A stretch of DNA of 64,000 nt from Candidatus Zixiibacteriota bacterium (GTDB lineage: Bacteria > Zixibacteria > MSB-5A5 > JAABVY01 > JAHJOQ01): positions 81,281-145,280 of the forward strand of contig JAHJOQ010000073.1 of the NCBI GenBank assembly GCA_018820315.1, read 5' to 3'. Below, piece by piece: positions 2-41,885 of the stretch. The number at the start of each line of letters is the position of its first letter. Position 1 is the stretch's first letter. Position numbers and translations under genes: made by a program. The notes below the pieces were generated by a model, which made no database searches, was not told the origin of the DNA, and saw nothing but the letters and a program-made list of their open reading frames with translations.

Positions 2-1372
2 GTGATGACGGGACTCAAGAATGATATATTTGCTGCTCTGCTTGCTTGTGGCAGCGTCTACGAAGTAGGAGGATGCGTTCGCGACTCTCTGTTCGGGCGC
101 GATGTGTCTGAGAAGGATCGCGATTATCTCGTTACCGGAATCCCTATTGATGAACTCATAGCATTACTCGGGCGATTCGGCAGGGTTGATGTTGTCGGGA
201 AATCGTTCGGTGTGATCAAATTCACGCCGCGAGGCGATGGCGCGTCACCGGCTGCCACATACGACATTGCACTTCCGAGACGCGAATTCTCAACCGGCCT
301 AGCTCACAGAGATTTCGAAGTCGATTTCGATCACATGATCCCGGTTGAGGAGGATCTCCTGCGGCGCGATTTTACCATCAATGCAGTCGCGCGAGATATG
401 AAAACCGGAGCTTTGATCGACCCTGTCGGTGGTCAGCGAGACATTGCAACGCGAACGCTGAGGATGATCAGCCCTAATAGCTTCACTGATGATCCACTGA
501 GGATTCTCAGAGGCATTCAATTTGCGGCGCGATTCGATCTCACGATCGAAGCGGAGACGATGCGCGCTATGCGCGAGCATGCGGATTTGATCACAACTGT
601 AACGCCCGAGCGAATCGGTGAAGAGCTGAACAAACTTCTGACGAGAGCGAAGATGCCGTCAGTCGGTTTCCTGCTGATGCAGGAAATTGGTCTCCTCAAA
701 CTGATTCTGCCGGAGCTCCATGAGTCTGTCGGCGTCACGCAGCCGGGTGGATATCACGCGCACAATGTTTTCGAGCACTCACTCTATGCTGTCGATGCGG
801 CGATCCCGACTCTGCGTCTCAGGTGGGCGGCGTTACTTCACGATGTGACGAAGCCGCAGTCAATGTGCGAGGTCGAGGGCGGCGTCACATTTTACGGCCA
901 CGAGACAAGCGGTGCCAGAGTGGCAAAGAAGGTGCTGAGGCGGCTTCGCTATCCCAATAACTTCGTTACAGAGGTCGCCACTCTGATAGACCAACATATG
1001 TTTTCGATTCCACCCTCAGATAAGGGCCTCCGTCGGCTTGTGCGTCGAACCGGCATTGATCTGATTTTCGATCTGCTCGATCTCAGACGCGCTGATGTTG
1101 TCGGTCAGGGAATGGGCAACAAGACTGATGATGTAGACGAGTTCGAGAAGCGAATCAAAGAGGAACTGGATCGAAAACCGCCGTTTTCCGTCAAGGATCT
1201 TGCAATTGGCGGAGATGATCTGATGATGCTGTTCAATATTCCCGAATCACCGATCATCGGAGATATTCTTTCCCATTTGTTGGAGATCGTGCTGGATGAT
1301 CCTGAAAAGAATAAAGAAGAAATATTAGTAGAGACAGTCAAGGAATACTTGCATTCTGAGGAGACTCGATGA
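2..1372 (+). CDS. cca: CCA-adding tRNA nucleotidyltransferase (PolyA-pol head domain plus HD domain); 5' end may lie before the window
   Basis: N-terminal GGCVRDSLFGRD...DxD nucleotidyltransferase motif, RRDFTINA motif and C-terminal HD region (LLHDVTKP). The stop overlaps the sucC start (ATGA). Confidence 0.8.
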   Translation: MMTGLKNDIFAALLACGSVYEVGGCVRDSLFGRDVSEKDRDYLVTGIPIDELIALLGRFGRVDVVGKSFGVIKFTPRGDGASPAATYDIALPRREFSTGLAHRDFEVDFDHMIPVEEDLLRRDFTINAVARDMKTGALIDPVGGQRDIATRTLRMISPNSFTDDPLRILRGIQFAARFDLTIEAETMRAMREHADLITTVTPERIGEELNKLLTRAKMPSVGFLLMQEIGLLKLILPELHESVGVTQPGGYHAHNVFEHSLYAVDAAIPTLRLRWAALLHDVTKPQSMCEVEGGVTFYGHETSGARVAKKVLRRLRYPNNFVTEVATLIDQHMFSIPPSDKGLRRLVRRTGIDLIFDLLDLRRADVVGQGMGNKTDDVDEFEKRIKEELDRKPPFSVKDLAIGGDDLMMLFNIPESPIIGDILSHLLEIVLDDPEKNKEEILVETVKEYLHSEETR

Positions 1373-2505
1373 AAATTCATGAGTATCAGGCGAAGGATAT
1401 CTTTGCACGTCACGGTATCCCCGTGCCGCCGGGAGAAGTCGTGACGACGCCGGAGGAAGCAAAACGCGTCGCCGAGAAAATAGGCAAAGCAGTAATGGTG
1501 AAATCGCAGGTGCATGTCGGTGGTCGCGGGAAGGCGGGTGGCGTGAAATATGCCGAAAACCCCGAAGCGGCTTTCCAACATGCCAGCAACATCCTGGGTA
1601 TGGACATCAAAGGCCTGATAGTGAAGAAAGTGCTGATCACTGAGGCAGTCGATATCACTTCCGAGTCGTATGTCGGGATCATAATCGATAGATCGGCGAA
1701 GAAGCCTGTGTTCATGGTTTCTCCGGCAGGTGGAATTGACATTGAGCAGGTCGCCAAGGAGACGCCCGAGAGGATTTTCAAGCGGCATATCGATCCGCTT
1801 CTGGGAATGTCGATGTATGAGGCACGCGCGCTTGGATACAAGCTGTACGATGATCCAAAGCTGGTCAATCAGGCGGCGAAGATAATCCTGAAGCTGTATG
1901 AAGCTTTCATGGCGAGTGATGCATCTCTCGCTGAAATCAACCCTCTGATCACTACCTCGGAAGGTCAGGTGCTTGCGATCGATGCGAAGATCAACATCGA
2001 TGACAACGGGCTGTTCCGTCATCCCGACATCGAAGCACTTCGCGATATGGATGCCGAAGACAAATCTGAGATGGATGCGCGCGATGCGGGCCTGTCATTT
2101 GTCAAGCTCGATGGCAACATCGGATGCATCGTCAACGGCGCAGGTCTGGCTATGGCTACTATGGATCTGGTTAAGTACTACGGTGGTGATCCGGCCAATT
2201 TCCTCGACATCGGAGGATCATCGAATCCCGAGAAGGTCGTCAATGCAATGAAAATAATTCTGCGTGATACGAACGTAAGAGCGATCCTGTTTAACATATT
2301 CGGCGGCATCACGCGCTGCGACGATGTCGCGACGGGAATCGTTGAAGCGATCAACAGGCTGCAGCCATCAGTTCCGATCGTCATCAGGCTGACCGGGACC
2401 AACGAAGAAGAGGCTCGCAGGATTCTCGAAGAAGTTAAGCTACCCGCAGCTACATCAATGGATGAGGTCGTCCAGAAGGCGATAGAAGTTGCGGGAATAA
2501 ATTGA
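1369..2505 (+). CDS. sucC: Succinyl-CoA synthetase beta subunit (ATP-grasp)
   Basis: MKIHEYQAKDIFARHGIPVP N-terminus and ~378 aa length match SucC. Immediately followed by sucD. Confidence 0.93.
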   Translation: MKIHEYQAKDIFARHGIPVPPGEVVTTPEEAKRVAEKIGKAVMVKSQVHVGGRGKAGGVKYAENPEAAFQHASNILGMDIKGLIVKKVLITEAVDITSESYVGIIIDRSAKKPVFMVSPAGGIDIEQVAKETPERIFKRHIDPLLGMSMYEARALGYKLYDDPKLVNQAAKIILKLYEAFMASDASLAEINPLITTSEGQVLAIDAKINIDDNGLFRHPDIEALRDMDAEDKSEMDARDAGLSFVKLDGNIGCIVNGAGLAMATMDLVKYYGGDPANFLDIGGSSNPEKVVNAMKIILRDTNVRAILFNIFGGITRCDDVATGIVEAINRLQPSVPIVIRLTGTNEEEARRILEEVKLPAATSMDEVVQKAIEVAGIN

Positions 2506-2576
2506 CGTGGATGATCAAAAGAGATCAAATCGAATCGGCCAAATGAGGATTGTGGAACAAGAGGTCAGAGGTTAAC

Positions 2577-3755
2577 ATGAGCATATTCGTTGATGGAAAG
2601 ACTAAGATCGTTGTGCAGGGAATAACCGGTCGTGACGGTTCATTCCATGCGAAACAGATGAAGGAATACGGTTCAAAGGTCGTCGCCGGTGTAACGCCGG
2701 GCAAGGGCGGCCAGAATCTCGACGGCATTCCGATTTTTAATACGGTTGAGGATGCGGTGAGAGCGACCGGCGCCAACACTTCGGTGATTTACGTTCCGGT
2801 GGCGTTTGCAATCGATGCAATCTATGAAGCAGCAGATGCTGGCGCGAAGCTAATCGTCTGCATTACCGAGGGTGTTCCGGCGAATGACATGCTGAATGTC
2901 TACAATTATCTGAAGGACAAAGACTGCCGCCTTATCGGCCCGAATTGCCCCGGAATCATCAGCCCCGGCAAGACGAAAGTCGGCATCATGCCTGGTCACA
3001 TCAGCAAGCCTGGCAAGGTCGGAGTCGTATCACGCTCCGGCACGTTGACATATGAAGTCGTATACAATCTCACGCTCGCCGGGCTCGGTCAGTCGACCTG
3101 TATCGGAATTGGCGGCGATCAGATCATCGGGACGAATTTTATTGATTGTCTGGAAGCATTCCAGGCTGATCCGGCGACTGAAGCGATTGTCATGATCGGT
3201 GAGATAGGCGGCTCTGACGAAGAGGAGGCCGCTGCATACATCAAGAAGAACGTAACAAAGCCGGTCGTCTCGTTCATTGCGGGTCAGACTGCGCCTCCGG
3301 GGAAGCGCATGGGACATGCAGGCGCGATAATTTCCGGCGGTACCGGTACTGCTGCGGACAAGGTAAAGGCGTTGAATGCAGCCGGTATTCCAGTTGCTGA
3401 AACTCCGGCACAGGTCGCTACAGTCATGGCAGAGCTGATCGCAAAGTCCAAAGCGGCAAGAAAGAAGACTGCTAAGCCGGCAAAGAAGAAAGCAGCGAAG
3501 AAAACAGTCAAGAAGGTCGTGAAGAAAGTAGCTAAGAAGGCGGCTAAGAAGACTGTCAAAAAGGTTGCGAAAAAGAAGGCTGCAAAGAAGGCCCCCAAGG
3601 CTACAAAGAAAGTAGTCAAGAAGGTCTCAAAGAAGGCAGCGACCAAGAAGAAGTCTGTGAAGAAAGCTATCAAGAAAACTGCAAAGAAGATAACAAAGAA
3701 AACGTCCAAGAAGACGACCGCGCGCTCTCGTAAGACATCGGGCAAGCGCAAATAG
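2577..3755 (+). CDS. sucD: Succinyl-CoA synthetase alpha subunit with a ~103 aa C-terminal Lys/Ala-rich histone-H1-like extension
   Basis: The core (~289 aa) has the CoA-binding and citrate-lyase-like motifs ([18 protein letters not shown]). The tail is [18 protein letters not shown]... to the stop codon. The likely start is ATG at 2577 (MSIFVDGK), downstream of the track start at 2550. Confidence 0.9.
3444..3755 (+). repeat. Low-complexity imperfect tandem AAG/AAA-GCN-rich coding repeat encoding the SucD K/A-rich tail
   Basis: Visible DNA periodicity (aagaaggtcgtgaagaaagtagctaagaaggcggctaagaag...). The antisense ORFs on this stretch (Phe-rich) are artefacts of the repeat. Confidence 0.8.
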
Positions 3756-3773
3756 GCCGCCGGGAGTTTGCAA

Positions 3774-4055
3774 ATGACAGATAAACCGGAAAAAGCAGAA
3801 GAAAAGCCTCCAGAGAAGGTACAGACGGAGGCTGCGCCGGCCAAGAAGGGTAAAGGTGCTGGATCCGACGACCCTCTGACCATCTTCTACCACTGGTGTA
3901 AGGCGTGCAATATTTGCATAGCCTTTTGTCCTCAGAAGGTCTTCGAACCGGATCGAGATGGTAAGCCACAGATTGTACGTCCTCGGGATTGCTCCCAGTG
4001 TGCATTCTGTTGGCTGCACTGTCCTGACTTGGCGATAATTTCCAACGAGAAGTAG
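3774..4055 (+). CDS. korD: 2-oxoglutarate:ferredoxin oxidoreductase delta subunit (dicluster 4Fe-4S ferredoxin)
   Basis: Two CxxCxxCxxxCP motifs (CKACNICIAFCP; CSQCAFCWLHCP). Lies directly upstream of korA. Short K/E/P-rich N-terminus. Confidence 0.8.
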   Translation: MTDKPEKAEEKPPEKVQTEAAPAKKGKGAGSDDPLTIFYHWCKACNICIAFCPQKVFEPDRDGKPQIVRPRDCSQCAFCWLHCPDLAIISNEK

Positions 4056-4066
4056 AGGAGCGGCAA

Positions 4067-5224
4067 ATGAAGAGAGAAGTAAAACTGCTGCAAGGTAACG
4101 AAGCCTGTGTCGAAGGCGCTATCATGGCCGGCGTCCGCTTCTTCGGTGGATATCCCATCACACCCTCTACGGAAATCGCTGAGGGAATGGCGCGAAGACT
4201 GCCGCTGATCGGGGGACGTTTCGTCCAGATGGAGGATGAGATTGCCTCGATGGCATCGATTATAGGCGCATCATGTGCGGGTGTCAAGTCAATGACGGCG
4301 ACGTCGGGACCTGGCTTCTCGCTGATGCAGGAGAACCTGGGCTACGCATACATAACCGAGACGCCTACCGTGATCGTTGACGTTCAGCGGGGTGGCCCTT
4401 CGACAGGCCTCCCGACTAAAGTGTCTCAGGCAGATACGATGCAGGCCGGATTCGGGACTCACGGCGACTATTATGCGATTGCGCTGGCTCCGTCGAGCGT
4501 GGAAGAGATTCTGTATGCGACGATAGAGGCTGTGAATCTGTCTGAGACGTACAGAACGCCTGTGATCCTGCTGCTTGATGAAGTGCTCGCGCATATGCGA
4601 GAGAAGGTAGAGATTCCATTTCCTGACGAGATTCAGGTAGTGAAGCGTAAACGCCCTACGGTACCGCCGGATTGGTACAAACATTTTGCAATCTCGGCGA
4701 CCGGGGTTTCGGCGATGGCGAAGTTCGGTGATGGCTATCGCTTTAATATAACCGGGCTGACACACGATGAACTCGGATTTCCGACCGCGGTTCCTTCCGA
4801 AATCGCAGCCATGCTCGACAAGCTCAAACAGAAGATTGTCAAGAATGCTGAATTGACATGCCAGTTTGAGTACACCGAGATGGATGATGATCCAAATGTG
4901 GCTATATTCTCCTACGGGATCGTCGCTCGTGCAGCCAAGCAGGCCGTCATGATGGCCCGCGACCACAGGCTGAAAGTCGGTGCGATTCGACCCAAGGCAA
5001 TCTGGCCGTTGGCAGCAAACACCCTGCGAAAGCGGCTGAAAAAGGTTAGAAAACTGATCGTAGCTGAACTGAACCAGGGACAACTTATCAATCAGATCAA
5101 ACATCATGTGGACAGGCGGCACACCGAAATCATACCTCTTCAGAGATATGACGGTGAACTGATAACGCCCGCCCAGATTCTTCAAAAAGTCAAGGAGGTA
5201 AAGCATCATGGAACAGAAATCTGA
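4067..5224 (+). CDS. korA: 2-oxoacid:ferredoxin oxidoreductase alpha subunit
   Basis: The N-terminus (LLQGNEACVEGAIMAGVRFFGGYPITPSTEI) is typical of KorA/PorA. Confidence 0.9.
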   Translation: MKREVKLLQGNEACVEGAIMAGVRFFGGYPITPSTEIAEGMARRLPLIGGRFVQMEDEIASMASIIGASCAGVKSMTATSGPGFSLMQENLGYAYITETPTVIVDVQRGGPSTGLPTKVSQADTMQAGFGTHGDYYAIALAPSSVEEILYATIEAVNLSETYRTPVILLLDEVLAHMREKVEIPFPDEIQVVKRKRPTVPPDWYKHFAISATGVSAMAKFGDGYRFNITGLTHDELGFPTAVPSEIAAMLDKLKQKIVKNAELTCQFEYTEMDDDPNVAIFSYGIVARAAKQAVMMARDHRLKVGAIRPKAIWPLAANTLRKRLKKVRKLIVAELNQGQLINQIKHHVDRRHTEIIPLQRYDGELITPAQILQKVKEVKHHGTEI

Positions 5225-6047
5225 TGTAATTCATCGTTACCTCCGGCCGAAGAAGAAATTTCCGCATGTGTGGTGTTCCGGCTGCGGACTTGGAGTGATC
5301 CTCGGATCGCTGATTCGTTCGATCGACGCTCTGGAAATACCGAAAGACAATATTACAGTCTGTTCGGGCATTGGATGTTCGTCGCGTCTGCCGGTGTACG
5401 TCGATTTCAACACTCTGCACACCACGCACGGGCGTGCGATTGCTTTTGCAACGGGCGTGAAAGTCGCTAACGACCGTCTCAAAGTGATCGTAGTGACTGG
5501 TGACGGTGACTGCCTTGCAATTGGCGGCAACCACTTCATCCATGCCTGCCGCAGGAATATTGATATAACGGTGATTCTTGCGAATAACTGGATATACGGC
5601 ATGACAGGCGGTCAGTATTCGCCGACGACACCGACGACCAAGTTTGGCTCTACTGCGCCATATGGGAACCTCGAGCAACCATTCGATCCGGCCAAACTGG
5701 CGATTGCGTCGGGCGCTGCCTACGTTGCGCGCACGACGGTATATCACGTCGATCAGATGGACAAGATGATTAAAGGTGCCCTTGCTAAGAAGGGCTTCTC
5801 TGTCGTTGAGGTGATCTCGAACTGTCATACCTACTTCGGGCGCCTGAACCGCGCAGGTGATGCTGTCCAGATGCTCGACTGGATGAAGAAGCATGCCATG
5901 CCGATCCAGGCCGCGAGGAAGCTTCCTCCGGAGAAGATGGAAGGCAAGTTCGTGACGGGTCTCCTTCACGATGAAGAGAAGGATGAGTATTGCGAGAAGT
6001 ACGCTCGTCTGGTCGATGAACTTATGAACAAGTCTGGAGCGAGGTAG
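5208..6047 (+). CDS. korB: 2-oxoacid:ferredoxin oxidoreductase beta subunit (TPP-binding)
   Basis: CSGCG...GDGD TPP-binding motif (VVTGDGDCLAIGGNHFIHA). Overlaps the korA stop. Confidence 0.9.
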   Translation: MEQKSDVIHRYLRPKKKFPHVWCSGCGLGVILGSLIRSIDALEIPKDNITVCSGIGCSSRLPVYVDFNTLHTTHGRAIAFATGVKVANDRLKVIVVTGDGDCLAIGGNHFIHACRRNIDITVILANNWIYGMTGGQYSPTTPTTKFGSTAPYGNLEQPFDPAKLAIASGAAYVARTTVYHVDQMDKMIKGALAKKGFSVVEVISNCHTYFGRLNRAGDAVQMLDWMKKHAMPIQAARKLPPEKMEGKFVTGLLHDEEKDEYCEKYARLVDELMNKSGAR

Positions 6048-6051
6048 TACG

Positions 6052-6624
6052 ATGCCGGATAAAACCAAACATGCCGTCGGTTCCGACCGATTTGAGATAC
6101 GCCTTTCCGGCTCAGGTGGTCAGGGTCTGATCCTTGCCGGAGTCATTCTGGCTGAGGCTATAGGGACAATCGACGGGAAGAATGTCACACAAACGCAGTC
6201 CTATGGACCTGAAGCTCGTGGCGGAGCGTCGAGAGCCGACGTCGTTGTATCGAAAGATGAGATTTATTATCCTAAGACGATGAAGCTCGACTTGCTTCTT
6301 GCGCTGACTCAGGAGGCGTGTGACACGTATTTCCATGATCTGAAGGATGGCGGAATTTTCATGATTGATTCTCATATGGTGACACAGCCACCTACTCCCA
6401 ATTGCTATGGATTCCCGTTTGTGCAGCTTGCGAAAAGCGAGATCGGCGTTGCTATGGTAGCCAACGTAATTTCGCTCGGTGCAATATGCGAGCTGACAGG
6501 AATCGTTTCGAAGCACGCGTTGACGGAAATAGTAAAGAAACGTGCCCCGAGAGGAACCGAGGAGAAGAACCTCAAGGCTCTCGAGCTCGGATTCAAGATT
6601 GCGCGCGAATACAAGAACGCGTAA
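6052..6624 (+). CDS. korC: 2-oxoacid:ferredoxin oxidoreductase gamma subunit
   Basis: SGSGGQGLILAGVILAEA motif of the POR/KOR gamma family, ~190 aa. Confidence 0.88.
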   Translation: MPDKTKHAVGSDRFEIRLSGSGGQGLILAGVILAEAIGTIDGKNVTQTQSYGPEARGGASRADVVVSKDEIYYPKTMKLDLLLALTQEACDTYFHDLKDGGIFMIDSHMVTQPPTPNCYGFPFVQLAKSEIGVAMVANVISLGAICELTGIVSKHALTEIVKKRAPRGTEEKNLKALELGFKIAREYKNA

Positions 6625-6734
6625 GAAGCTGGAGCGATGGAGAAGAAGCTGCTGATAATCAAGCCTGATTTGACCGAGACTGCAAAGGCTGAGATATCGT
6701 TTTTCTTTGGAGATTTCTGAGACGGAATCAACGG

Positions 6735-7985
6735 ATGATGACAATTAGAATTCCATATGGCGACGACAAGCTGGAGATCACCGTGCCGGATGAACACTTT
6801 GGCGGATTGATCGAACAGAAGCGTCAGGTAGCTGCGAGGAACGTGTCATCTCTCATCAAGGATTCGCTCGCTGCTGATCGACTTGGAGAGTTTCTCGGAG
6901 ATTCGACCAGAGTTCTTGTTGTTGTGAATGACTCCTATCGGTGGACGCCATCGCATCTTGTGCTCGCGGAGCTGAGTCAATACTTGAGAAAGATTTCAGA
7001 CGTGCGATTAATCGTGGCAACCGGCCTGCACAGAAAGCCTACTGATTCCGAAATCGACAGGATTCTGGGAGATGGGTGCGATATTTCCCGGTCCGGGATC
7101 GCATACTCAGATGCGTACGACGCAGATCAATTCGACTGCATCGGCAAGTGGAGGAGCGGCAAAGATGTTCTTGTGCACAAGCTGTTCGGCTGGGCTGAGA
7201 AGGTGATTGTGATCAGCTCCGTGGAACCGCACTACTTTGCTGGTTTCTCAGGCGGCCCGAAGTCTTTTGTACCCGGACTCGCGCACAAGAGTACTATTGA
7301 AGCGAATCACTCTCTCGCTGTCAGCAGTGACTGCCAGCCTTGCATTCTCGAGGGCAACCCTTTTGCAGAGTCGCTCAGGGAGGCTGTCGATCTGCTCGAT
7401 TTGTCGAGAGTCTACGCGATTCAGCTCGTCTTGAACACGCACGAGGATGTTGTTGGCGTGTTCACCGGCGATCTGTGGAGCAGTTTCGGCCGGGCGGTCG
7501 ATTGCGCGAGATCGGTATTCGTCGAGAAAGTCGATCGTCAGTATCCGGTTGTAGTTGCAGTCAATTCGCCTCCGCTTGACAGGAATCTCTATCAGATGCA
7601 GAAAGTGTATGAGAATACGAAAGGTTTGGTGATGGATGGAGGTTCGATCATTGTCGTCTCGAAATGCCAGGAAGGCGTCGGCAATGATGAGTTCCTGAAT
7701 CTCGCCGCCAAGTATCCTGAGCCTCAGGATGTTCTTAACGCCAAGGTCGAGGGATGGAGTCTCGGTTTCCACAAGCTGTACAGAACTGCGTTGGCGAAGA
7801 AAAGAATCAGCATATTTGCCAAGACTGATGTCGATCCGGAAATTGTCCGACGTGTGTATCTCGATCCGATCGATGATCTGCAGTCGAAGATCAATGAAGA
7901 ATTAGAGAAGTTTGGAAAAGAGTCAAAGGTAATGTTTATATTGGATGCAGGCCATGTCGTTCCACACGTGGATCGGGCCGCATAG
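6735..7985 (+). CDS. LarA-family (nickel-pincer nucleotide-dependent) 2-hydroxyacid racemase/epimerase homolog
   Basis: N-terminal DUF2088-like region (IPYGDDKLEITVPDE...LVVVNDSYRWTP), GLHRKPT motif and HYFAGFSGGPKSFVPGLAHKSTIEANH. These match the LarA cofactor-anchoring Lys/His region (HYFAGFSGGRKS in L. plantarum LarA), recalled from memory. Confidence 0.65.
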   Translation: MMTIRIPYGDDKLEITVPDEHFGGLIEQKRQVAARNVSSLIKDSLAADRLGEFLGDSTRVLVVVNDSYRWTPSHLVLAELSQYLRKISDVRLIVATGLHRKPTDSEIDRILGDGCDISRSGIAYSDAYDADQFDCIGKWRSGKDVLVHKLFGWAEKVIVISSVEPHYFAGFSGGPKSFVPGLAHKSTIEANHSLAVSSDCQPCILEGNPFAESLREAVDLLDLSRVYAIQLVLNTHEDVVGVFTGDLWSSFGRAVDCARSVFVEKVDRQYPVVVAVNSPPLDRNLYQMQKVYENTKGLVMDGGSIIVVSKCQEGVGNDEFLNLAAKYPEPQDVLNAKVEGWSLGFHKLYRTALAKKRISIFAKTDVDPEIVRRVYLDPIDDLQSKINEELEKFGKESKVMFILDAGHVVPHVDRAA

Positions 7986-8009: not shown

Positions 8010-8942
8010 ATGCGAAGGAAAGTAGCAGTTATAGGAGCGGGTAACGTTGGTGCATCGGTTGCTCAGTATCTTGCTCAGAAGAACCTGTGCAACATAGTGC
8101 TTGTCGATATTCCCGAGAAAGAAGGCATGCCTGCCGGTAAGGCGCTCGATCTTATGCAGGCCGGTCCGATCGATAACTACGATTGCAGTGTAGTTGGTAC
8201 GTTCGACTTTGCGGAAATCAAGGATTCCGACATTGTCGTCGTCACATCCGGTCTCGCTCGCAAGCCGGGCATGTCTCGCGAAGATCTTCTCAAGGCCAAT
8301 GCAGCGATCATCAAATCTGTTTCTGAGAATGTTGCCAAGCACGCCCCCCAATCGATGGTCATCATGGTTGCGAATCCGCTCGATCTGATGACGTATCATG
8401 CCTGGAAGGTGACCGGATTCCCGACCAACCGCGTATTCGGTCAGGCCGGCATTCTCGATTCCATTCGTTTCCGTACGTTTGTCGCGATGGAGCTCGGCGT
8501 GTCCGTAAATGACACACAGGCGATGGTGCTCGGCGGCCACGGCGACACAATGGTACCGGTTCCGTCATACACGACCGTTGCCGGCATCCCGATCACTGAG
8601 TTGCTTCCTGCGGATCGCATCCAGGCTATCTGCGATCGCACCAGAACGGGTGGCGGCGAAATCGTCAAGCTGCTCAAGACCGGATCGGCATACTATGCTC
8701 CGGCGCGCGCTGCCGTCGATATGGTCGAGTCAGTTCTTTCAGATCGCAAGAGAGTTTTGCCATGCTCGGCGTACCTAACCGGCCAGTATGGTCTCAAAGA
8801 TGTCTACATCGGTGTCCCGTGCGTTCTCGGTGCCAACGGTGTAGAGAAGATCTTCGAACTCAAGCTCAGCGTAGCGGATCTTGAGCTTCTGCAGAAGTCA
8901 GGCAACACTTACAAAGAGCATCTGAAAGAGCTGGGATATTAG
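8010..8942 (+). CDS. mdh: Malate dehydrogenase (LDH-like, NAD-dependent)
   Basis: KVAVIGAGNVGASVA Rossmann motif, a catalytic His region and ~310 aa length. Confidence 0.9.
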   Translation: MRRKVAVIGAGNVGASVAQYLAQKNLCNIVLVDIPEKEGMPAGKALDLMQAGPIDNYDCSVVGTFDFAEIKDSDIVVVTSGLARKPGMSREDLLKANAAIIKSVSENVAKHAPQSMVIMVANPLDLMTYHAWKVTGFPTNRVFGQAGILDSIRFRTFVAMELGVSVNDTQAMVLGGHGDTMVPVPSYTTVAGIPITELLPADRIQAICDRTRTGGGEIVKLLKTGSAYYAPARAAVDMVESVLSDRKRVLPCSAYLTGQYGLKDVYIGVPCVLGANGVEKIFELKLSVADLELLQKSGNTYKEHLKELGY

Positions 8943-8965: not shown

Positions 8966-10210
8966 ATGAATTACAAGATGTTGAAACCGCCGACCAACGG
9001 TGACAGAATCACTGTTGAAGGTGGTAAGCTGAATATACCAAACAAGCCAATTATCCCGGTGATCGAAGGCGACGGCATCGGGCGCGATATCATGAAGGCG
9101 ACTCGCAGAGTGGTGGATGCCGCTGTCGAGAAGACTTTCGGCGACGAGAAGAAAATCGTCTGGTTTGATGTCTATGCCGGTGAGAATGCGAATGCGAAAT
9201 ATGGCGAATGGATGCCGGAGGATACGTTCGATGCCATTCGTGAGTATATCGTTGCACTCAAAGGCCCGCTTACGACTCCGGTCGGTGGTGGATTCAGAAG
9301 CCTGAACGTGACACTTCGTCAGGTTCTCGAACTCTACGCCTGTGTGCGTCCGGTCAGATACTTCGAAGGTGTCCCATCGCCGGTCAAGCATCCCGAAGAC
9401 ATGAATGTCGTCATATACCGTGAGAACACCGAGGATGTCTATGCAGGTATCGAATGGCAGCAGGGTACGGCTGAAGTCAAGTCGGTCATCGATTTTCTGA
9501 ACAACACTTTCAAGTTGAACATTCGCGCCGATTCCGGAATCGGAATCAAGCCGATTTCGATCACGGGTACTGAGCGGCTGGTGAAAAAGGCGATCAATTT
9601 CGCGATCGACAAGAAGCACTCATCGGTCACGCTGGTACACAAAGGGAACATCATGAAGTTCACCGAAGGTGCTTTCCGTGACTGGGGATACAAGCTCGCA
9701 GCGCGCGAATTCGCAAACGAGACAGTTTCCGAGGATGATCTCTGGTCGAAATTCGACGGTAAAGCGCCTGATGGCAAGATCGTCGTCAAGGATCGTATTG
9801 CCGATTCGATGTTCCAGCAGATTCTGACCCGTACGAAAGAGTACGACGTTATCTGTACGCCGAACCTCAACGGCGATTATCTCTCCGATGCTTGCGCTGC
9901 GCAGGTCGGTGGGCTCGGTATGGCTCCCGGAGCCAATATCGGCGACCATATCGGACTGTTCGAAGCTACTCACGGCACTGCTCCGAAGTATGCCGACAAG
10001 GATATGGTCAACCCGGGATCGCTGATTCTCTCGGCTTGCATGATGCTCGAGTATCTCGGCTGGGATGATGCTTCGAAGAAGATATATGATGCAATTCAGG
10101 AGACGATCAAGAAGAAGACGGTAACGTATGATCTTGAGCGTCAAATGAGCGGTGCGACAAAGTTGTCGACTTCCGAGTACGGAACGCAGATCATCAAGAA
10201 TCTGAAGTAG
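8966..10210 (+). CDS. icd: Isocitrate dehydrogenase (NADP-type, homodimeric)
   Basis: N-terminus [28 protein letters not shown] and C-terminal [19 protein letters not shown] motifs, 414 aa. Confidence 0.93.
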
Positions 10211-10241
10211 CCCCCTATTTCGAACTTGTTCGATATAGAGC

Positions 10242-10280
10242 GCCGACCGGTCTTGTACCGGTCGGCGTTTCTTGTTTGTG
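10242..10280 (+). terminator. Rho-independent terminator after icd
   Basis: GCCGACCGGTcttgtACCGGTCGGC hairpin followed by gtttcttgtttgtg (T-rich). Confidence 0.7.
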
Positions 10281-13235: not shown

Positions 13236-14279
13236 ATGCCAGATAAAGAGCACATAGACTACAGTTCGGCCGGTGTCGATCTTGACCGGGCCGGTGCTGC
13301 AACCGAGAAAATCAAGTCTCTGGCTGCGGCGACATTCACCAAGAACGTGATGGGCAAGTTTGGTGGATTCGGCGGGGCATTTAAATTCGACACGAAGGCA
13401 ATCGCGGACCCAATACTCATATCAAGTTGCGACGGTGTCGGCACCAAACTGAAGATCGCATTCATGACCGGCATTCACAGCACTGTCGGCGCCGATTTGG
13501 TGAATCACTGCATTGACGACATAGCGGTTTGCGGTGCCGAACCATTGTTCTTCCTCGATTATATCGGCACGGGACAGCTCGATCCCGATATGATCGAGCA
13601 GATTGTTAAAGGATTCGCCACTGCCTGCCTGAAAGCCGGAATCGCCCTGATCGGCGGCGAGACAGCTGAGATGCCCGATTTCTATAAGCGAGGAGAGTAT
13701 GATCTCGCGGGCTTCATAGTGGGAGTGGTTGGTTCGGGTGAAGTCATTGACGGTTCCGGAATCACTGACGGTGATGTGGTGATCGGTTTCCCCTCGGTTG
13801 GATTGCATACCAATGGATACTCGCTTGCCCGTAAGGTATTTTTCGATGTGGCGAAATGGAAAGTAGATAGAAAAGTCGAGGAGTTCGGCAGGACTCTCGG
13901 CGAGGAGCTTCTTGTTCCGCATTATTCCTATCTGGAAGAAATTCGTGCTCTGAAGAGGCTCGGGGTAAAGGGAATGGCTCACATCACTGGAGGGGGCATT
14001 CCGGGTAACCTGAACAGGATAATCCCTGACGGTCTCTGCGCCAAGGTCGAAGTTGGGAATCAGGAGATTCCTCCGATATTTAGCCTCATGCAGAAGCTCG
14101 GCAACATCGAGACCAGGGAAATGTATCGAGCCTTTAATATGGGCATCGGCCTGGTCGCTGTCCTTAGCCGCGAACAGGCCACGAGTATTCTCGATGATGG
14201 CAGTCTCCAAGCGAAGCCACTTGAGATCGGAAGGATTGCGACCGGTACGTCACCTGTTGAGTTGATCTATCTCACATAA
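13236..14279 (+). CDS. purM: Phosphoribosylformylglycinamidine cyclo-ligase (AIR synthetase)
   Basis: AGVDLDRAG...GGFGGAF...DGVGTKL...GGETAEMP are PurM motifs, 347 aa. Confidence 0.93.
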   Translation: MPDKEHIDYSSAGVDLDRAGAATEKIKSLAAATFTKNVMGKFGGFGGAFKFDTKAIADPILISSCDGVGTKLKIAFMTGIHSTVGADLVNHCIDDIAVCGAEPLFFLDYIGTGQLDPDMIEQIVKGFATACLKAGIALIGGETAEMPDFYKRGEYDLAGFIVGVVGSGEVIDGSGITDGDVVIGFPSVGLHTNGYSLARKVFFDVAKWKVDRKVEEFGRTLGEELLVPHYSYLEEIRALKRLGVKGMAHITGGGIPGNLNRIIPDGLCAKVEVGNQEIPPIFSLMQKLGNIETREMYRAFNMGIGLVAVLSREQATSILDDGSLQAKPLEIGRIATGTSPVELIYLT

Positions 14280-15964: not shown

Positions 15965-18148
15965 ATGCGTCTGATAATAGCAATAATTGCGGCTCTTACG
16001 CTGGTATTTCTATGGACTTCCAGTCCGGAAGCGATCTCGTGGAAGACCTACACCGATTCACGGAAAGTCAATTCGATACTCGAGTATGGAGGAGAATTGT
16101 GGGCTGGGACCGGCGGTGGTGTGCTGCGATTTCATCCCGATGGTTCCAACCTGATCCAGTACACGAATTCCGAAGGGCTCGGAGATAATACGATAAGCTC
16201 TGGCATAGCTGCCGGCGGCTACATCTGGTTTGGATCGGATACTGGAAAGCTATCGCGATTCGATCCCTCTGATGGCAGCTGGCGAATCTTCGTACTTCGC
16301 GATCGAGATGGCAACAGCATCGCAATTCATGATATGGAGACCTCGGCCGATTTCCTCTGGCTTGCTACCGATATTGGAGTCAGCAAGTTTGACATGTTTC
16401 GCAATGGTGGAGAGATAAAGGAGACTTACCGTCGATTGGGCGATTTGACCGTTGAATCGCCTGTTGTTTCAGTATTCATCGAGGGAAGCGTCATTGTAGC
16501 CGCAAGTCTTGAAGGGCTCTCTATTGCTGATATCAGCGACGAGTTCCTTCAGGATTTCACCCACTGGAGCTCAGTGACTGAGGCGAATTCTGTCGACTTT
16601 GCCAGTGGGGATATCACGTCTGTTGCGATCCTGAGTGGTGTCTATGTAGTTGGATCTACTTCCGGGCTGTACACAGTCATCGAGGTGGACGGTGCATATT
16701 TATGGGAAAGAGTCGGTTTGGCGAATGCTGCCGTCAGACAGATACGAAGTGATACAGGGCAGCTTCGGATTACGGCGACTTCCGGCATCTACACTTACGA
16801 TGGTGCGTCACTGGATCAGCATGATCTCACCGGATTGCCGGATGTCACCCTCAGGACTTCGGTAATTGCAGGTGACAACGTTATCGTCGGCACGGAGGAA
16901 CAGGGTCTTTTCATCAGTTCGACCGGCTGGACGAATGTCCTGGTTGGCGGTCCGGCATCCAACGCGATTGTTGATGTGGCTGCCGACAGCAAAGGAACAA
17001 TATGGACCGTTCTTAAGCCGCCGTTTGTATCCAGCTTCGATGACGATCAGTGGGCGCATATTACGCTGCCTGTTTCTGACGCTGGACAGTGGGCACTTGA
17101 GGTGGATCATAACGATGATATCTGGGTGAGTACCTGGCAGAATGGCGCATTGCGCCTTCATGGTGATTCGCTAATCAAGTACGACACAACCAATAGTTCG
17201 CTGTACGGTAATGGGGATGCGGATGGAGAGAACTATATCGTGCTGCGAGATCTCGATGTCGATGAAGCGGGGAGAATCTGGTTTCCGTGCTACCGAGGGT
17301 ATCCGATGCGGCCTGTCAGCTTCTATGATCCCGCCACGGACAGATGGGATTACTACACCAATCTGGAGGGGCTGACCGATCACTTCATAATTTCGATTCA
17401 CGTTGTCGATGGAATCCTCTGGACCGGATACGAGAATGCGGGTCTATACCGCACCACCTTAGGCAGTGATCCCTTTGATCATTCGGATGTTTCCAGCCGA
17501 CTGTATACAACGCTGGAGAATCTGCCTTCTGACGATATCAGAGTTATTTCAAGTGATCTGAACGGTACGGTCTGGGTAGGAACCAACGCCGGACTGGCAT
17601 ATTTCGATGAAGGAATAGACAGATTCATACGGGTTGAACTGCCATCCGGAGCAGGTCCGCAGATAAATGCTATCGAGATTGACCCAAGGAATAACCTATG
17701 GATAGGGACGTCAAACAGCCTGGTATCGCTCACCGCCGATGGATCGGGATTCGAAGTCTTCACCACTGCCAACAGCAACATAGCAGGCAATGAAATCACG
17801 TCGTTGCATTACGCTGATGATGGTTTTCTGTGGATCGGAACTTCCTCCGGTTTATCGCGACTTGACTACGCGATTGGAATTCTGACTACTCAGGTGGATG
17901 AAGTCCTAGCTTATCCAAGTCCGTTTCTGGTCCCGGATCATGGGAAAGTCTTCTTCAACTTCGAAGGAGTGGCAGATGTATCGATCTACACTCTTGCAGG
18001 TGAGCTGGTGGCGGAGACGTCTACATCGCGTGGCTGGGATGGCAGCAACGATAGTGGTGAACTGGTTGCCGGAGGTCTGTATCTCTTTTACATAGTGACT
18101 CCGAACGGCGAGAGTCATACAGGCAAGATAGCCCTTGTTCGCAAGTAG
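15965..18148 (+). CDS. Secreted beta-propeller protein (two-component-regulator-propeller-like repeats) with a T9SS C-terminal sorting domain
   Basis: Signal peptide. Repeated W-x-GT-x-x-GL motifs (LWIGTSNSLVSL, VWVGTNAGLAYFD, LWIGTSSGLSRL). The C-terminus ...VSIYTLAGELVAE...GLYLFYIVTPNGESHTGKIALVRK is typical of T9SS CTDs. Confidence 0.7.
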   Translation: MRLIIAIIAALTLVFLWTSSPEAISWKTYTDSRKVNSILEYGGELWAGTGGGVLRFHPDGSNLIQYTNSEGLGDNTISSGIAAGGYIWFGSDTGKLSRFDPSDGSWRIFVLRDRDGNSIAIHDMETSADFLWLATDIGVSKFDMFRNGGEIKETYRRLGDLTVESPVVSVFIEGSVIVAASLEGLSIADISDEFLQDFTHWSSVTEANSVDFASGDITSVAILSGVYVVGSTSGLYTVIEVDGAYLWERVGLANAAVRQIRSDTGQLRITATSGIYTYDGASLDQHDLTGLPDVTLRTSVIAGDNVIVGTEEQGLFISSTGWTNVLVGGPASNAIVDVAADSKGTIWTVLKPPFVSSFDDDQWAHITLPVSDAGQWALEVDHNDDIWVSTWQNGALRLHGDSLIKYDTTNSSLYGNGDADGENYIVLRDLDVDEAGRIWFPCYRGYPMRPVSFYDPATDRWDYYTNLEGLTDHFIISIHVVDGILWTGYENAGLYRTTLGSDPFDHSDVSSRLYTTLENLPSDDIRVISSDLNGTVWVGTNAGLAYFDEGIDRFIRVELPSGAGPQINAIEIDPRNNLWIGTSNSLVSLTADGSGFEVFTTANSNIAGNEITSLHYADDGFLWIGTSSGLSRLDYAIGILTTQVDEVLAYPSPFLVPDHGKVFFNFEGVADVSIYTLAGELVAETSTSRGWDGSNDSGELVAGGLYLFYIVTPNGESHTGKIALVRK

Positions 18149-21443: not shown

Positions 21444-22315
21444 TGCGAATCTCGATTATTATTCCGCTCTATCTGGGACGCGGTGTTATAGGTCGGTGTC
21501 TCGACAGCCTTATTGACTGCAGGGACGATTCCGGTTGCGAGATAATAGTAATCGACGACTGCTCACCGGACGGTGCTGGAGAATTCGTCAGTTCTGCTTA
21601 TCCCGGCATCCGGATGCTGGTGAATGAAAAGAACATTGGCTATGCGGCGAGCGTGAATCGTGGGTTGTCGACGGCTGGCGGAGAATACATCCTGCTTCTG
21701 AATCAGGATACAGTAGTCGAGACAGGCTCAGTGGTGACGCTTGTTCGCATTTTGGAAGAACGCGAAGATATCGCTGCCGTTGCGCCACAGCTATTGAATC
21801 TGGATGGATCAATCCAAAGATCGTGCCGCTTTCTTCCCGAGCATTGGGACGTGATCAGCTATCATTTGCTGCTCGCATATCTGATTCCCGAATCGCGCAT
21901 CTTCTCACGCTGGCGCATGCCAGGCTTTACGCACGATGAGGAGTTGATCGTCGAGCAACCTTCATTCTCGGCGATTTTGCTCAGGCGGTCCACTATTGAG
22001 GCTGTCGGACTTCTGGATGAGAGATTCAGAATATTCTTCAATGATGTCGATTACTGCAGAAGAATGGCAGAACATGGCGGAAAGATTCTCTTCTCGCCCG
22101 CCGCAAAAGTGACACACCAGCGTGGACAATCGACCGCTCAGATTCCACTGCGCAAGATTCTCGATGCGCATCGTGGATTTATCAGATACTTCCTCAAGCA
22201 TTACCACGGCGCTGCATACCTGCTGCCGAATCTACTGATGGCTGTCTTGCTGGTGTTTTCAGGTTTCGTCAGGATGGTGTGGCAATTGATCAGACATCCG
22301 TTTATTTCAGAATGA
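21443..22315 (+). CDS. Glycosyltransferase family 2
   Basis: ISIIIPLY...IIVIDDCSPDG...DxD (LNQDTVV) matches the GT2 GT-A fold signature. Confidence 0.85.
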   Translation: MRISIIIPLYLGRGVIGRCLDSLIDCRDDSGCEIIVIDDCSPDGAGEFVSSAYPGIRMLVNEKNIGYAASVNRGLSTAGGEYILLLNQDTVVETGSVVTLVRILEEREDIAAVAPQLLNLDGSIQRSCRFLPEHWDVISYHLLLAYLIPESRIFSRWRMPGFTHDEELIVEQPSFSAILLRRSTIEAVGLLDERFRIFFNDVDYCRRMAEHGGKILFSPAAKVTHQRGQSTAQIPLRKILDAHRGFIRYFLKHYHGAAYLLPNLLMAVLLVFSGFVRMVWQLIRHPFISE

Positions 22316-24665
22316 CCATCTTCTTCGCATCTGAGAACATGTCTGTCTTCAGTCTGTAGAAATAGACTCCACTCGGCCATCCGGCGGCGTCGAACTGTGT
22401 GATGTGAGCGCCTGCGCCCATCTGTTCGCTCAGCAGAGTTTCCTCCAACTGTCCGAGTACATTGTATATTCCAAGTTCTACGTAGGTCGCGCGAGGCAAG
22501 TCAAATGCAATCTTTGTGGTGGGATTAAACGGGTTGGGGTAGTTTTGCTTCAAACTGAAAGCTGAGGGGAGAAGTAAGTCGTCCGTATCGTCGTCAGCAT
22601 CCAGGAGCAGAGATGGGGAGAGATTCTCTTCGATGGGGACGTATCCCGGCTTGCTTACCGTCACCGTGACTGTCGTGTCGACAGTTAGCGTGAAGGCGAC
22701 TTCGATCACGCCGTCAGACCCGGTGAAGCCGTCAAAGATGATTGCTTCTTTTCCGACTACTGTCACTTGTGCTGAATCGATTGGATCGCCAATAGAATTG
22801 ACATCCAGAGAGAAGCTGTTTTCGCCGAAGTCCAACTCAGTCGGAAAGGCTGTCGATACCTGCTGGGGAATATCCGTCCAGATGCGTAGCGATGGATCTC
22901 CGTAGACGTTGAGTCCGTATACAAGATCTCTGATAGTGTGGTTGTTGGCCTTTGAGTAATTATTCGCCGGTGCGAGGCGATTGTCAAGATTGAATATGCA
23001 TTCATTGAAATCAATCGCGAATCTATATGAACTGGCTACCCATCCCCAGCGAGAATAGCCGATAAATGCTGCCGCGCCCGCCTGGGGCTGTGTCAACAGC
23101 CTTTCCGCAACACACGGATCTGTGTTTTCATACGGCGGCACATCCATATCGAACGCACCATTGTTGCATCCCACTGAGTAGATGATACCGCAACGATTCG
23201 AATTGGTTGCGTCGCACATTGTCGCGTGGCCCGGAGGGGCAGTCTCAGCCGTAAGTACGAATGACTTGGGCCATTCGTTATATGCTGCGGCTCGCGAGAC
23301 GAATCCGTTAGCCATGCCGTGTGCGAATATATATGCCAGGTTAAAACCCTCCGAAAGCTTCGATATGAAGTCCACGGCCGCGGGTGACGCCGGAGATTCG
23401 TCGGATCCCGAAGGCGCTTCCGCAAGCGACCAGGTATCGACGTCGAGATAGGCCGGAAGCTGCTCTGCCAACATAGAATCCTGACCGATATCGTGATAGT
23501 CACGCATCTGGTCAGATGCTGCTGTCAGGAGTTTGAGCGCGAATTGATCGTCACCATCACCGGGGTTTCTCTCGTATGCGATCGATTTCTCAATGAATGC
23601 AGCGACTTCAGTCGGTGTGTCCACAGGAACTCTGCCGATCATTATTTCGGGAGTGATATCGGGGGAGTCGTCGTACATCTCGCCGTAGATTCCATCTCCG
23701 TCGGCATCCCATTCACCTGTGAGATCGGCATAATAGAGATCGCATACTTGCTGCATGTCGAGAGCAATATCGGTGGATCTGTCGAGATGAAATGCGTATC
23801 TGATCGGAACGACAGTCTCATCGCCACCGAGAAGAACCCACCGAGTTCCGCCATCATACGCATCGATCAAGTAGTTTCTGATTCTTTCCGGATTGTCAAC
23901 ACCGGAACTCTGCGAGTAGATATCTTCGGTGGTGACAATTTCTGCAGAGTATCCGAGCTGCCGTTTCCATTTGATCAATGGCCGGAACGCTTCTGCCAGA
24001 TATGCAGAGGTTATGATTATGTACTCCGCCGAAAATGAAGCTGGCGAAAATGATGTGTGCGACAGCGAATCATCATCCGGAACTGCTCTGGTATCAGAGA
24101 TGCTTCTGGAAATCGACTCGAAGAGAGCTTGTTGCGCCAATCGAGATTCCTCGCATAGTTCTACAGCTGCACCGGTGATCTCTACACTGACGTCATTGTA
24201 ATACCAGAGGCGACACTCTGCAGAATCATAGGTGTAGAGTGAAACCCAGATATCGACTACGGTGATTTCATCCAGCTCCAGAGTCCCCGCTATGGCAGTG
24301 CGTGGCTGACCCTGAAAATTGAGTGGTTCCCCGGTAATTCCTGACGTGTCGAAAAATCCAACCGCGTCTGTTGTGAGATACGCTAGCTGCATCCGTTCAT
24401 CGTCGAAGTCAGATATTTCGATTGAGTCGATTGCCTTTGACGTAGCAATGATATCTGAAACATCTCCACGGCAGATAAAGCGGATTTTCCGAACCGGATA
24501 ATCACATCCGGGTATCTCATATTCCTGAGTGCTCGCGTGTGATTCGCCGTAATATGAGGTGACCTCGTCGCTGCACGAGATTGGGAACACCTCGGCCCGA
24601 ACGTCGATTGCGGTTGAAATCAGAGGCAACACCAGCAATGTAAGCGCGATCATTAGTCCCCTCAC
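22302..24665 (-). CDS. Peptidase C25 (gingipain-like) family protein with a T9SS C-terminal sorting domain
   Basis: Signal peptide and C25-like motif series (IIITS...WKRQLGY; LLGGDETVVP; IGRVPV; IFAHG; IYSVGCNNGAFD, candidate His/Cys dyad). The C-terminus KQNYPNPFNPTTKI...GVYFYRLKT is the T9SS CTD signature. Confidence 0.65.
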   Translation of the reverse strand: MRGLMIALTLLVLPLISTAIDVRAEVFPISCSDEVTSYYGESHASTQEYEIPGCDYPVRKIRFICRGDVSDIIATSKAIDSIEISDFDDERMQLAYLTTDAVGFFDTSGITGEPLNFQGQPRTAIAGTLELDEITVVDIWVSLYTYDSAECRLWYYNDVSVEITGAAVELCEESRLAQQALFESISRSISDTRAVPDDDSLSHTSFSPASFSAEYIIITSAYLAEAFRPLIKWKRQLGYSAEIVTTEDIYSQSSGVDNPERIRNYLIDAYDGGTRWVLLGGDETVVPIRYAFHLDRSTDIALDMQQVCDLYYADLTGEWDADGDGIYGEMYDDSPDITPEIMIGRVPVDTPTEVAAFIEKSIAYERNPGDGDDQFALKLLTAASDQMRDYHDIGQDSMLAEQLPAYLDVDTWSLAEAPSGSDESPASPAAVDFISKLSEGFNLAYIFAHGMANGFVSRAAAYNEWPKSFVLTAETAPPGHATMCDATNSNRCGIIYSVGCNNGAFDMDVPPYENTDPCVAERLLTQPQAGAAAFIGYSRWGWVASSYRFAIDFNECIFNLDNRLAPANNYSKANNHTIRDLVYGLNVYGDPSLRIWTDIPQQVSTAFPTELDFGENSFSLDVNSIGDPIDSAQVTVVGKEAIIFDGFTGSDGVIEVAFTLTVDTTVTVTVSKPGYVPIEENLSPSLLLDADDDTDDLLLPSAFSLKQNYPNPFNPTTKIAFDLPRATYVELGIYNVLGQLEETLLSEQMGAGAHITQFDAAGWPSGVYFYRLKTDMFSDAKKMVILK

Positions 24666-41206: not shown

Positions 41207-41230
41207 CCGTCAGGAATCCTTTCCTGACGG
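41207..41230. repeat. REP palindrome copy 1 (CCGTCAGGAA-tcct-TTCCTGACGG)
   Basis: Perfect 10 bp inverted arms around a 4 nt loop. Overlaps the 3' end of the RAYT gene. Confidence 0.85.
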
Positions 41231-41861: not shown

Positions 41862-41885
41862 CCGTCAGGAATCCCTTCCTGACGG
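41862..41885. repeat. REP palindrome copy 3 (CCGTCAGGAA-tccc-TTCCTGACGG)
   Basis: Perfect copy that overlaps the 3' end of the HEPN-like ORF. Confidence 0.85.

Follow-up and report, generated by a model that had tools for sequence, protein, structure and literature searches.

A predicted nickel-dependent malate racemase of the LarA family in a tricarboxylic acid cycle operon of Zixibacteria

The 64-kb stretch of a Candidatus Zixiibacteriota genome analysed here (assembly GCA_018820315.1, contig JAHJOQ010000073.1, positions 81,281 to 145,280; hereafter the window) codes for a homologue of the lactate racemase LarA, which we call LarAH. Its gene, larAH (6735..7985, + strand), is predicted to specify a malate racemase that has nickel-pincer nucleotide (NPN) as its cofactor and belongs to an uncharacterized lineage resembling Group 04 of the LarA homologues. 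It is embedded in a block of tricarboxylic acid (TCA) cycle genes that is kept throughout the Zixibacteria compared. LarAH is very probably an active NPN-dependent racemase or epimerase of 2-hydroxyacids, and we regard malate, with moderate confidence, as its main substrate. The literature searched describes neither a distinct Zixibacterial LarAH clade outside all curated families, nor its fixation in a TCA operon, nor the repeated occurrence of Group-04-like LarAHs in variously organized TCA clusters.

Active site and specificity residues of LarAH

The open reading frame (ORF) starts with ATG and encodes a protein of 416 amino acids (aa), to which Pfam assigns the domains Lar_N (PF09861, formerly DUF2088; residues 8-196, E 1.3e-39, 136 bits against a gathering threshold (GA) of 23.3) and LarA_C (PF21113; residues 272-405, E 8.3e-11, 42.5 bits, GA 25). 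This is the architecture of the LarA superfamily (IPR048068 / COG3875). An AlphaFold2 model built from a 31-sequence alignment (pLDDT 93.4, pTM 0.91) gave significant Foldseek E-values for LarA-family structures only, among them the malate racemase Mar2 (7S91, E 1.3e-36, the best value) and holo-LarA (5HUQ chain A, query TM-score 0.90). The best phmmer match in PDB was again Mar2 (6D6Z, 1.2e-43), followed by the lactate racemases 2YJG, 6C1W and 5HUQ. Domains, fold and PDB matches agree with the first-pass annotation of this DNA, which had assigned the protein to the LarA family.

Equivalent residues were read from alignments to the solved LarA and Mar2 structures and to a set of 59 reference sequences. 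Residues D72, R75, H108, H174, K184, H200, Y294, Q295 and K298 of LarA are all conserved in LarAH, as D66, R69, H99, H166, K176, H192, Y286, Q287 and K290, respectively, and the catalytic and NPN residues are invariant across the 31-sequence alignment, with relatives at 33-59% identity. Both this alignment and the signature table place D66 and R69 (6930..6941; this and the following sites are on the + strand) at the positions predicted to bind the substrate carboxylate and the NPN. H99 (7029..7031) is the predicted first catalytic acid/base His, and H192 (7308..7310) the predicted nickel ligand. The motif E164-P-H166-Y-F-A-G-F-S-G-G-P-K176-S ... E-A-N-H192-S includes the segment H166-Y167-F168-A-G-F-S-G-G-P-K176 (7230..7262), aligned with H174, F175, F176 and K184 of LarA; these positions hold the second catalytic His, two specificity residues (here Y and F) and the NPN-tethering Lys (Desguin et al. 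2020, PMC7583248; Urdiain-Arraiza et al. 2024, PMC11770544). The Lys and His ligands of the cofactor had been described as intact, and their loss named as what would contradict a LarA-type function. The alignment reveals no such loss, K176 and H192 being present in LarAH and in all 31 relatives. LarAH is accordingly described here as a predicted intact LarA-family enzyme, with a complete NPN site and a two-His catalytic site.

The positions defined as governing specificity are the pair that follows the second catalytic His, the one that precedes the catalytic Lys, and the first turn of a C-terminal helix, corresponding to W358/T359 in LarA and K351 in Mar2 (PMC7583248, PMC11770544). Lactate racemases (LARs) read F, F, V, W and T/E/Q at these positions (LarA F175, F176, V297, W358, T359); 2-hydroxyglutarate racemases (HGRs) read Y and F followed by H/Q and T, have V/I at position 294 and carry an N-x-Q-T motif; malate racemases (MARs) carry H/Q and K at the W358/T359 positions (PMC7583248, PMC11770544). 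LarAH reads Y167, F168, Q289 at the V297 position and G344-x-H346-K347, with H346 and K347 at the W358/T359 positions. This is the pattern of MAR groups 04/05/06 and of Mar2 itself (Y172, Q293, H350, K351). In the sequence, Q289 belongs to Y286-Q287-M-Q289-K290 (7590..7604; LarA Y294, Q295, V297, K298) and corresponds to the MAR-type Q293 of Mar2. The second element, G344-F-H346-K347-L-Y-R350 (7764..7784), lies at the start of the predicted helix 345-355 (DSSP analysis of the model); H346 and K347 align without gaps with H350 and K351 of Mar2 in both the pairwise and the multiple alignment, and R350 is an extra basic residue kept in the clade. Lys351 of Mar2 is the proposed binder for the second carboxylate group in malate (PMC7583248, PMC11770544).

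Mar2 (LarAH6) of Thermoanaerobacterium thermosaccharolyticum (6D6Z, 7S91), which belongs to Group 06 of Desguin et al. 2020, shares with LarAH the two-domain fold, all NPN and catalytic residues, the Tyr that follows the second catalytic His, the Gln that precedes the catalytic Lys and the G-x-H-K at which the C-terminal substrate helix starts. The two proteins are nevertheless only 29% identical, and LarAH has Phe168 in place of Lys173 as well as the additional Arg350. Their gene contexts also differ, since a malic enzyme accompanies 15% of the Mar2 group and a TCA operon surrounds LarAH. Two malate-racemase equivalogs are the top NCBIfam models for LarAH, NF052593 (LarAH6) with 270.6 bits and NF052595 (LarAH5) with 245.9 bits. 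In BLASTP against reference sequences taken from Dataset S2 of PMC7583248, the best matches were the ‘putative malate racemases’ of Group 04 (35% identity, 242 bits), with Mar2 at 158 bits, Mar1 at 150, LarA at 136 and Hgr at 107.

The Group 04 proteins, from Methanomassiliicoccales, Thermoplasmata and Korarchaeum, are the closest references to LarAH (34-35% identity, up to 242 bits), and the best matches among them are MMALV_14900, TALC_01392 and Kcr_0555. They share its full signature, D R H H Y F K H Y Q Q K, together with G-x-H-K and a basic residue at K+3, and their active-site loop SVEPHYFAG..GG.KSF.PG is nearly identical to that of LarAH. In contrast to LarAH, they are archaeal, and it is not TCA genes that typically adjoin them but AIR-synthase-like genes and those for a CCG/Fer4 Fe-S protein and a pterin-binding protein.

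The identical protein, which is also public in the candidate division Zixibacteria metagenome-assembled genome (MAG) GCA_018830545.1 (contig JAHJRO010000026.1, on which the window corresponds to about 26005-90004), is named ‘nickel-dependent lactate racemase’ at NCBI, in nr and at JGI. Apart from this naming, a lactate racemase would fit the fold, which LarAH shares with the founder of the superfamily, LarA of Lactiplantibacillus plantarum (5HUQ), along with the cofactor Lys and His and the two catalytic His. We consider that function extremely unlikely, however. LarAH is 27% identical to LarA and has Y, F, Q, H and K in place of F175, F176, V297, W358 and T359; the NCBIfam LarA model NF033504 (lactate racemase, Group 01) ranks third, with 225.9 bits against a cut-off of 460; and neither a lactate permease nor a lactate dehydrogenase belongs to the gene context. 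The larA gene of L. plantarum forms a cluster with larBCDE; LarAH has no lar biosynthesis genes nearby. As signature residues and NCBIfam scores argue against it, the deposited name is probably wrong, and this would hold for the whole clade.

Neighbour-joining (NJ) trees were computed with bootstrap from Kimura distances in numpy. They place LarAH in a Zixibacterial clade with 100% support, within a weakly supported Group-04-like cluster (bootstrap 56% and 68% in two trees, with the references truncated at ~400 aa). This cluster lies inside a MAR+LAR supercluster (94-100% bootstrap), and the HGR groups fall outside it. A phylogenetic placement among characterized homologues had been proposed as a check by the first-pass annotation, and its outcome is a position within the MAR+LAR supercluster and apart from the HGR groups. 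Of the two substrates put forward there, malate and 2-hydroxyglutarate, malate is favoured by the MAR signature, by the best NCBIfam and PDB matches and by neighbouring genes for malate dehydrogenase (MDH) and malic enzyme; 2-hydroxyglutarate is disfavoured, as the V/I at the Tyr294 position and the N-x-Q-T of the HGRs are lacking.

A 2-hydroxyglutarate racemase could clear or recycle L-2-hydroxyglutarate formed by side reactions of MDH on the 2-oxoglutarate of the oxidoreductase Kor and of isocitrate dehydrogenase (IDH). LarAH and the HGRs (Hgr, or LarAH7, of Deferribacter and LarAH32 of Geobacter) have in common the dicarboxylic class of 2-hydroxyacid substrates, which for LarAH is predicted. 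Both also carry Y and F next to the catalytic His, and at the W358 position a polar residue, which is His346 in LarAH. Enzymes that produce and consume 2-oxoglutarate flank larAH, and elsewhere the family occurs with GlcD-like and CCG proteins, as in HGR Group 11. We nonetheless judge this function very unlikely. LarAH does not carry the HGR signature of Groups 07a and 11, from which it differs at three positions (K347 for Thr, G344 for Asn and Y286 for Val/Ile); its identity to HGRs is 23-24%, with a BLASTP match to Hgr of 23% and 107 bits against 242 bits for Group 04; and the HGR groups stand outside the MAR+LAR cluster in the trees.

A GTDB-wide scan recovered at least 574 relatives of LarAH, the best 80 loci of which span Thermoplasmata, Methanomassiliicoccales, Asgard archaea, WOR-3, Spirochaetes, Deltaproteobacteria and others. 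The clade of proteins P0075, P0086, P0090 and P0094 was considered as a possible paralogue near lar genes; this was rejected, as its context is that of the TCA-embedded orthologue of other Zixibacteria.

The TCA operon and its conservation

In the window, larAH lies between korC and mdh, as the first-pass annotation had it; coordinates, Pfam and NCBIfam concur. All genes of the block are on the + strand. They begin with sucC (1369..2505), coding for the succinate-CoA ligase beta subunit (Pfam; NCBIfam PRK00696, 522.7 bits, cut-off 370), and sucD (2550..3755), coding for the alpha subunit (Pfam CoA_binding and Ligase_CoA, and translation). The next four genes, korD (3768-4055), korA (4067-5224), korB (5208-6047) and korC (6052-6624), identified with Pfam and NCBIfam, constitute korDABC (3768..6624) and encode a four-subunit 2-oxoacid:ferredoxin oxidoreductase. 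Its substrate is probably 2-oxoglutarate: korA passes PRK08659, and the best match of korB is the beta subunit of 2-oxoglutarate ferredoxin oxidoreductase, at 335.8 bits and below the cut-off of 364. Downstream of larAH are mdh (8010..8942), for an NAD-dependent L-malate dehydrogenase of the LDH-like type (TIGR01763, 456.8 bits, cut-off 351.85), and icd (8966..10210), for an NADP-dependent IDH (TIGR00183, 664 bits, cut-off 567.3). A D-malate/tartrate dehydrogenase next door would have neatly explained a racemase, and icd, a member of the Iso_dh family, was considered for this function; it was rejected on scores of 664 bits for NADP-IDH against 146 for tartrate dehydrogenase.

Gaps of 110 bp (korC-larAH), 24 bp (larAH-mdh) and 23 bp (mdh-icd) separate these genes. 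An intrinsic-terminator-like hairpin with a 14-bp stem, nine GC pairs and a T-rich tail (10238..10270, +) lies 3' of icd and ends the operon; no hairpin of comparable strength was found in the korC-larAH, larAH-mdh or mdh-icd junctions. A scan for sigma-70 promoters returned 7 sites against 8.2 expected from shuffled sequence, and no promoter is inferred from it. Given the 24- and 23-bp gaps and the position of the only strong terminator after icd, larAH seems to share a transcript with sucCD, korDABC, mdh and icd as part of a single TCA operon.

The same arrangement was found in the other Zixibacterial loci compared (L003-L006, L008-L010, L085-L087 and L046 in our numbering). Every one of them carries the block [446-aa protein]-arcC-cca-sucC-sucD-korDABC-ndk-larAH-mdh-icd, L046 in the shortened version sucD-ndk-larAH-mdh. 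LarAH identities across these syntenic loci range from 36 to 57%, and the block is kept even at 36-40%, which argues that the association is old and has been maintained phylum-wide.

All neighbours of 82 related loci were clustered into families. MDH was the commonest of them (16 of the 82 loci), and an IDH or Iso_dh-family gene adjoins LarAH in 12. Beyond the Zixibacterial clade the architectures vary. LarAH follows two tandem bona fide MDHs in L019 and L074, which form a separate clade with 100% bootstrap; it follows MDH and faces a GlcD-like oxidase in L054, is near MDH and citrate synthase in L073, and ends a citrate synthase-aconitase-NADP-IDH cluster in L047. A KSB1 MAG (L078:8211-11236) has ndk followed by a malic enzyme (428 aa) and then LarAH; the stop of the malic enzyme gene overlaps the LarAH start, and this is a third kind of malate-enzyme partner. 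In other subclades LarAH is paired with GlcD-like FAD oxidases and Fe-S (CCG or FlpD) proteins, and in archaeal ones with a CCG protein and a pterin-binding protein. The context table published in 2020 lists an association with MDH, kor or suc for no LarAH group (PMC7583248), and the literature searched contains no description of a TCA-operon context for a malate racemase, nor of Zixibacteria with a lactate racemase.

The loci L074:2073-11501 and L019:180-3473 come from one bacterial lineage, with the gene order ndk, Iso_dh-family gene, two MDH paralogues, LarAH (457 aa, extended at its C terminus), citrate synthase and aconitase B. The 446-aa protein at the head of the Zixibacterial block is encoded ~8 kb 5' of LarAH, just outside the window (L001:948-2288, +); in Zixibacteria it always precedes arcC (carbamate kinase) and the TCA operon, and it does so also in L074. 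It has a Walker-A-like GCGKS motif, a marginal CobW/HypB/UreG match (24.6 bits, GA 20.7; residues 231-296), no NCBIfam match and weak PDB matches to cyclic-2,3-diphosphoglycerate synthetase and HypB. The vicinity of a putative G3E-type metallochaperone-like protein to a nickel enzyme is suggestive.

Between korC and larAH lies an ORF of 27 codons (6637..6720, +), MEKKLLIIKPDLTETAKAEISFFFGDF, followed by a stop codon. In tblastn it is 79% identical to aa 1-14 and 71% identical to aa 118-131 of NDK. We interpret it as a relic of ndk in which an internal deletion of ~105 codons has joined the N- and C-terminal ends in frame. The NCBI MAG and a Logan assembly made independently carry it with the same sequence. 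An intact ndk occupies this position in all other Zixibacterial loci examined, and no full ndk was found elsewhere within the 64-kb window.

Some other features of the window deserve mention. SucD ends in a histone-H1-like tail of ~105 aa, consisting nearly entirely of Lys, Ala, Thr and Val (~3441-3755, +), and this tail accounts for the high AT skew (0.198) in the bin of 2-4 kb; the SucD proteins of Zixibacterial relatives are between 324 and 413 aa long. An AIRS-domain gene (13236-14279) was examined as a candidate for a HypE-like, nickel-related protein and rejected, as NCBIfam identifies it as purM. A glycosyltransferase cluster is flanked by genes related to type IX secretion, one for a PorZ-like beta-propeller/Reg_prop protein and one for a gingipain-family (C25) peptidase that bears a Por_Secre_tail sorting domain (15965-18148, +, and 22302-24665, -); their presence fits an organism of the FCB group. 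An ORF for an IS200-like Y1 transposase (41210-41797, -) comes directly after an mraZ-to-ftsZ-like block (25-41 kb; mraZ and mraW ORFs annotated) and is adjoined by an unannotated ORF of 201 aa (41865-42470, -).

Arguments against malate, and supply of the cofactor

Several observations weigh against the assignment of LarAH as a malate racemase. Its scores are under the curated cut-offs of both MAR models (270.6 against 500 bits for NF052593, 245.9 against 462 for NF052595) and, being below every curated cut-off (500, 462, 460), LarAH belongs to none of the LarAH families defined by NCBI. It is only 27-30% identical to characterized enzymes, the deep nodes of the NJ trees are weak (<70%) and the rule based on signature residues is empirical. 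Validation covers groups G1, G2, G5, G6, G7a, G10, G19 and G20 and a few additions of 2024, and these include neither Group 04 nor the Zixibacterial clade. Within the active site, Phe168 stands where Mar2 has Lys173, and the extra basic residue of the clade (R350; Lys in Group 04) is absent from characterized MARs, which could indicate a different or more highly charged substrate. The pairing with GlcD-like FAD oxidases and CCG Fe-S proteins seen in other subclades is typical also of HGRs. To our knowledge, D-malate has no established role in the TCA cycle. Finally, neither Pfam analysis of the ORFs nor six-frame tblastn with verified LarB, LarC and LarE detected the cofactor biosynthesis genes larB, larC or larE in the window.

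Some of these points would fit a racemase or C2-epimerase of another anionic TCA-related 2-hydroxyacid (e.g. tartrate, isocitrate, citramalate or 2-hydroxysuccinamate), for which malate would be a side substrate at most. Such an enzyme would agree with the position of LarAH outside both curated MAR families and with the basic residue one helical turn past K347 (HKLYR; HKAAK in Group 04), which neither Mar1 nor Mar2 possesses. Characterized MARs also epimerize tartrate, and their authors doubt that malate is the native substrate of Mar1. The IDH or Iso_dh-family neighbours in 12 of 82 loci, and citrate synthase and aconitase in L047 and L074, are further arguments in its favour. We still hold it to be unlikely: the key signature residues are the same as in proven MARs, the most telling neighbours, MDH and malic enzyme, are both malate-specific, and the C2 epimers of isocitrate or citramalate are not known to have a physiological role.

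As to the cofactor, the absence of larBCE from the window had already been stated in the first-pass annotation, and it extends to the other Zixibacterial loci. No larB, larC or larE was detected by tblastn within ±10 kb of any Zixibacterial locus, and only one of 82 related loci has larBCE adjacent to LarAH. This locus, from a Lentisphaerota MAG (L072:6896-11173), carries larC-larB-larE directly before a Group-04-like LarAH, all above the NCBIfam cut-offs. A tblastn search with its verified LarB, LarC and LarE against the window and 89 loci gave no match beyond L072 itself, and the best 120 matches of its LarC in a protein database were proteins of Kiritimatiellae and Bacteroidales and unnamed proteins, with no bearing on Zixibacteria. 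Among Group 04 genes, 28% are linked to larB, larC or larE (PMC7583248). The absence of larBCE from the window is therefore uninformative about function, since these genes are adjacent in only 1 of 82 related loci, and the lar cluster of L072 together with the linkage in Group 04 supports the use of NPN in this lineage.

A further explanation is that LarAH performs NPN chemistry other than racemization (e.g. a net oxidation, or the transhydrogenation of malate/oxaloacetate with another TCA acid), or that it is an apo-protein in an organism unable to make NPN. The missing larBCE in the window and in the Zixibacterial loci examined could be read in this sense, the centre of a redox-enzyme operon is an unusual place for a racemase, and NPN enzymes with non-racemase chemistry have recently been described. 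The proposals of non-racemase chemistry concern single-His homologues, however, and LarAH has both catalytic His; strict retention of the NPN ligands across 31 sequences at 33-59% identity speaks against an apo relic; and it is normal for this family to be separated from larBCE, which 81 of the 82 loci do not have close by. We regard this explanation as highly improbable, and an active malate racemase as the better account of LarAH.

Proposed mechanism and physiological role

By homology with LarA and Mar2, we infer the following mechanism. NPN would be made by larBCE products encoded elsewhere in the genome and tethered to Lys176, with His192 ligating the nickel. Arg69, Tyr286, Gln287 and Lys290 would hold the C1 carboxylate and the 2-hydroxyl group of malate, Lys347, His346 and Gln289 would recognize the C4 carboxylate, and Tyr167 and Phe168 would line the pocket. 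His99 and His166 would alternate as base and acid on the two faces of the substrate while the C2 hydride is parked on NPN. The transient oxaloacetate would then be re-reduced on the opposite face, interconverting D-malate and L-malate. That LarAH is loaded with NPN, that malate is its true substrate and what it does physiologically are likewise proposals.

Since larAH is apparently co-transcribed with mdh, its product would link a D-malate pool to the L-malate used by MDH, and this is the simplest reading of its role. The data presented here support neither a direction of flux nor the ‘reductive’ cycle that the first-pass annotation had considered. The position of LarAH hints at an unexplained role of D-malate in central metabolism. 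It allows speculation that the racemase is an integral, phylum-wide part of Zixibacterial central carbon metabolism and not an accessory catabolic enzyme. D-malate, or a related D-2-hydroxy di- or tricarboxylate, would then be a true intermediate or an unavoidable by-product of a ferredoxin-linked TCA cycle, and the nickel enzyme would return it to the L-malate/MDH branch, either as a nickel-dependent step or as metabolite repair. We consider this scenario quite unlikely; if true, it would provide the first clear physiological role for malate racemases.

The assignment itself would not surprise a specialist. Published work covers the family, its chemistry and the signature used for prediction, and the protein has been deposited. 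Malate racemases are active in vitro, and their role in vivo is an open question (PMC7583248). The fixation of a MAR-type LarAH clade in a TCA operon across an uncultured phylum would extend nickel dependence to a central-metabolism operon in Zixibacteria, and it makes the in vivo role of malate racemases testable.

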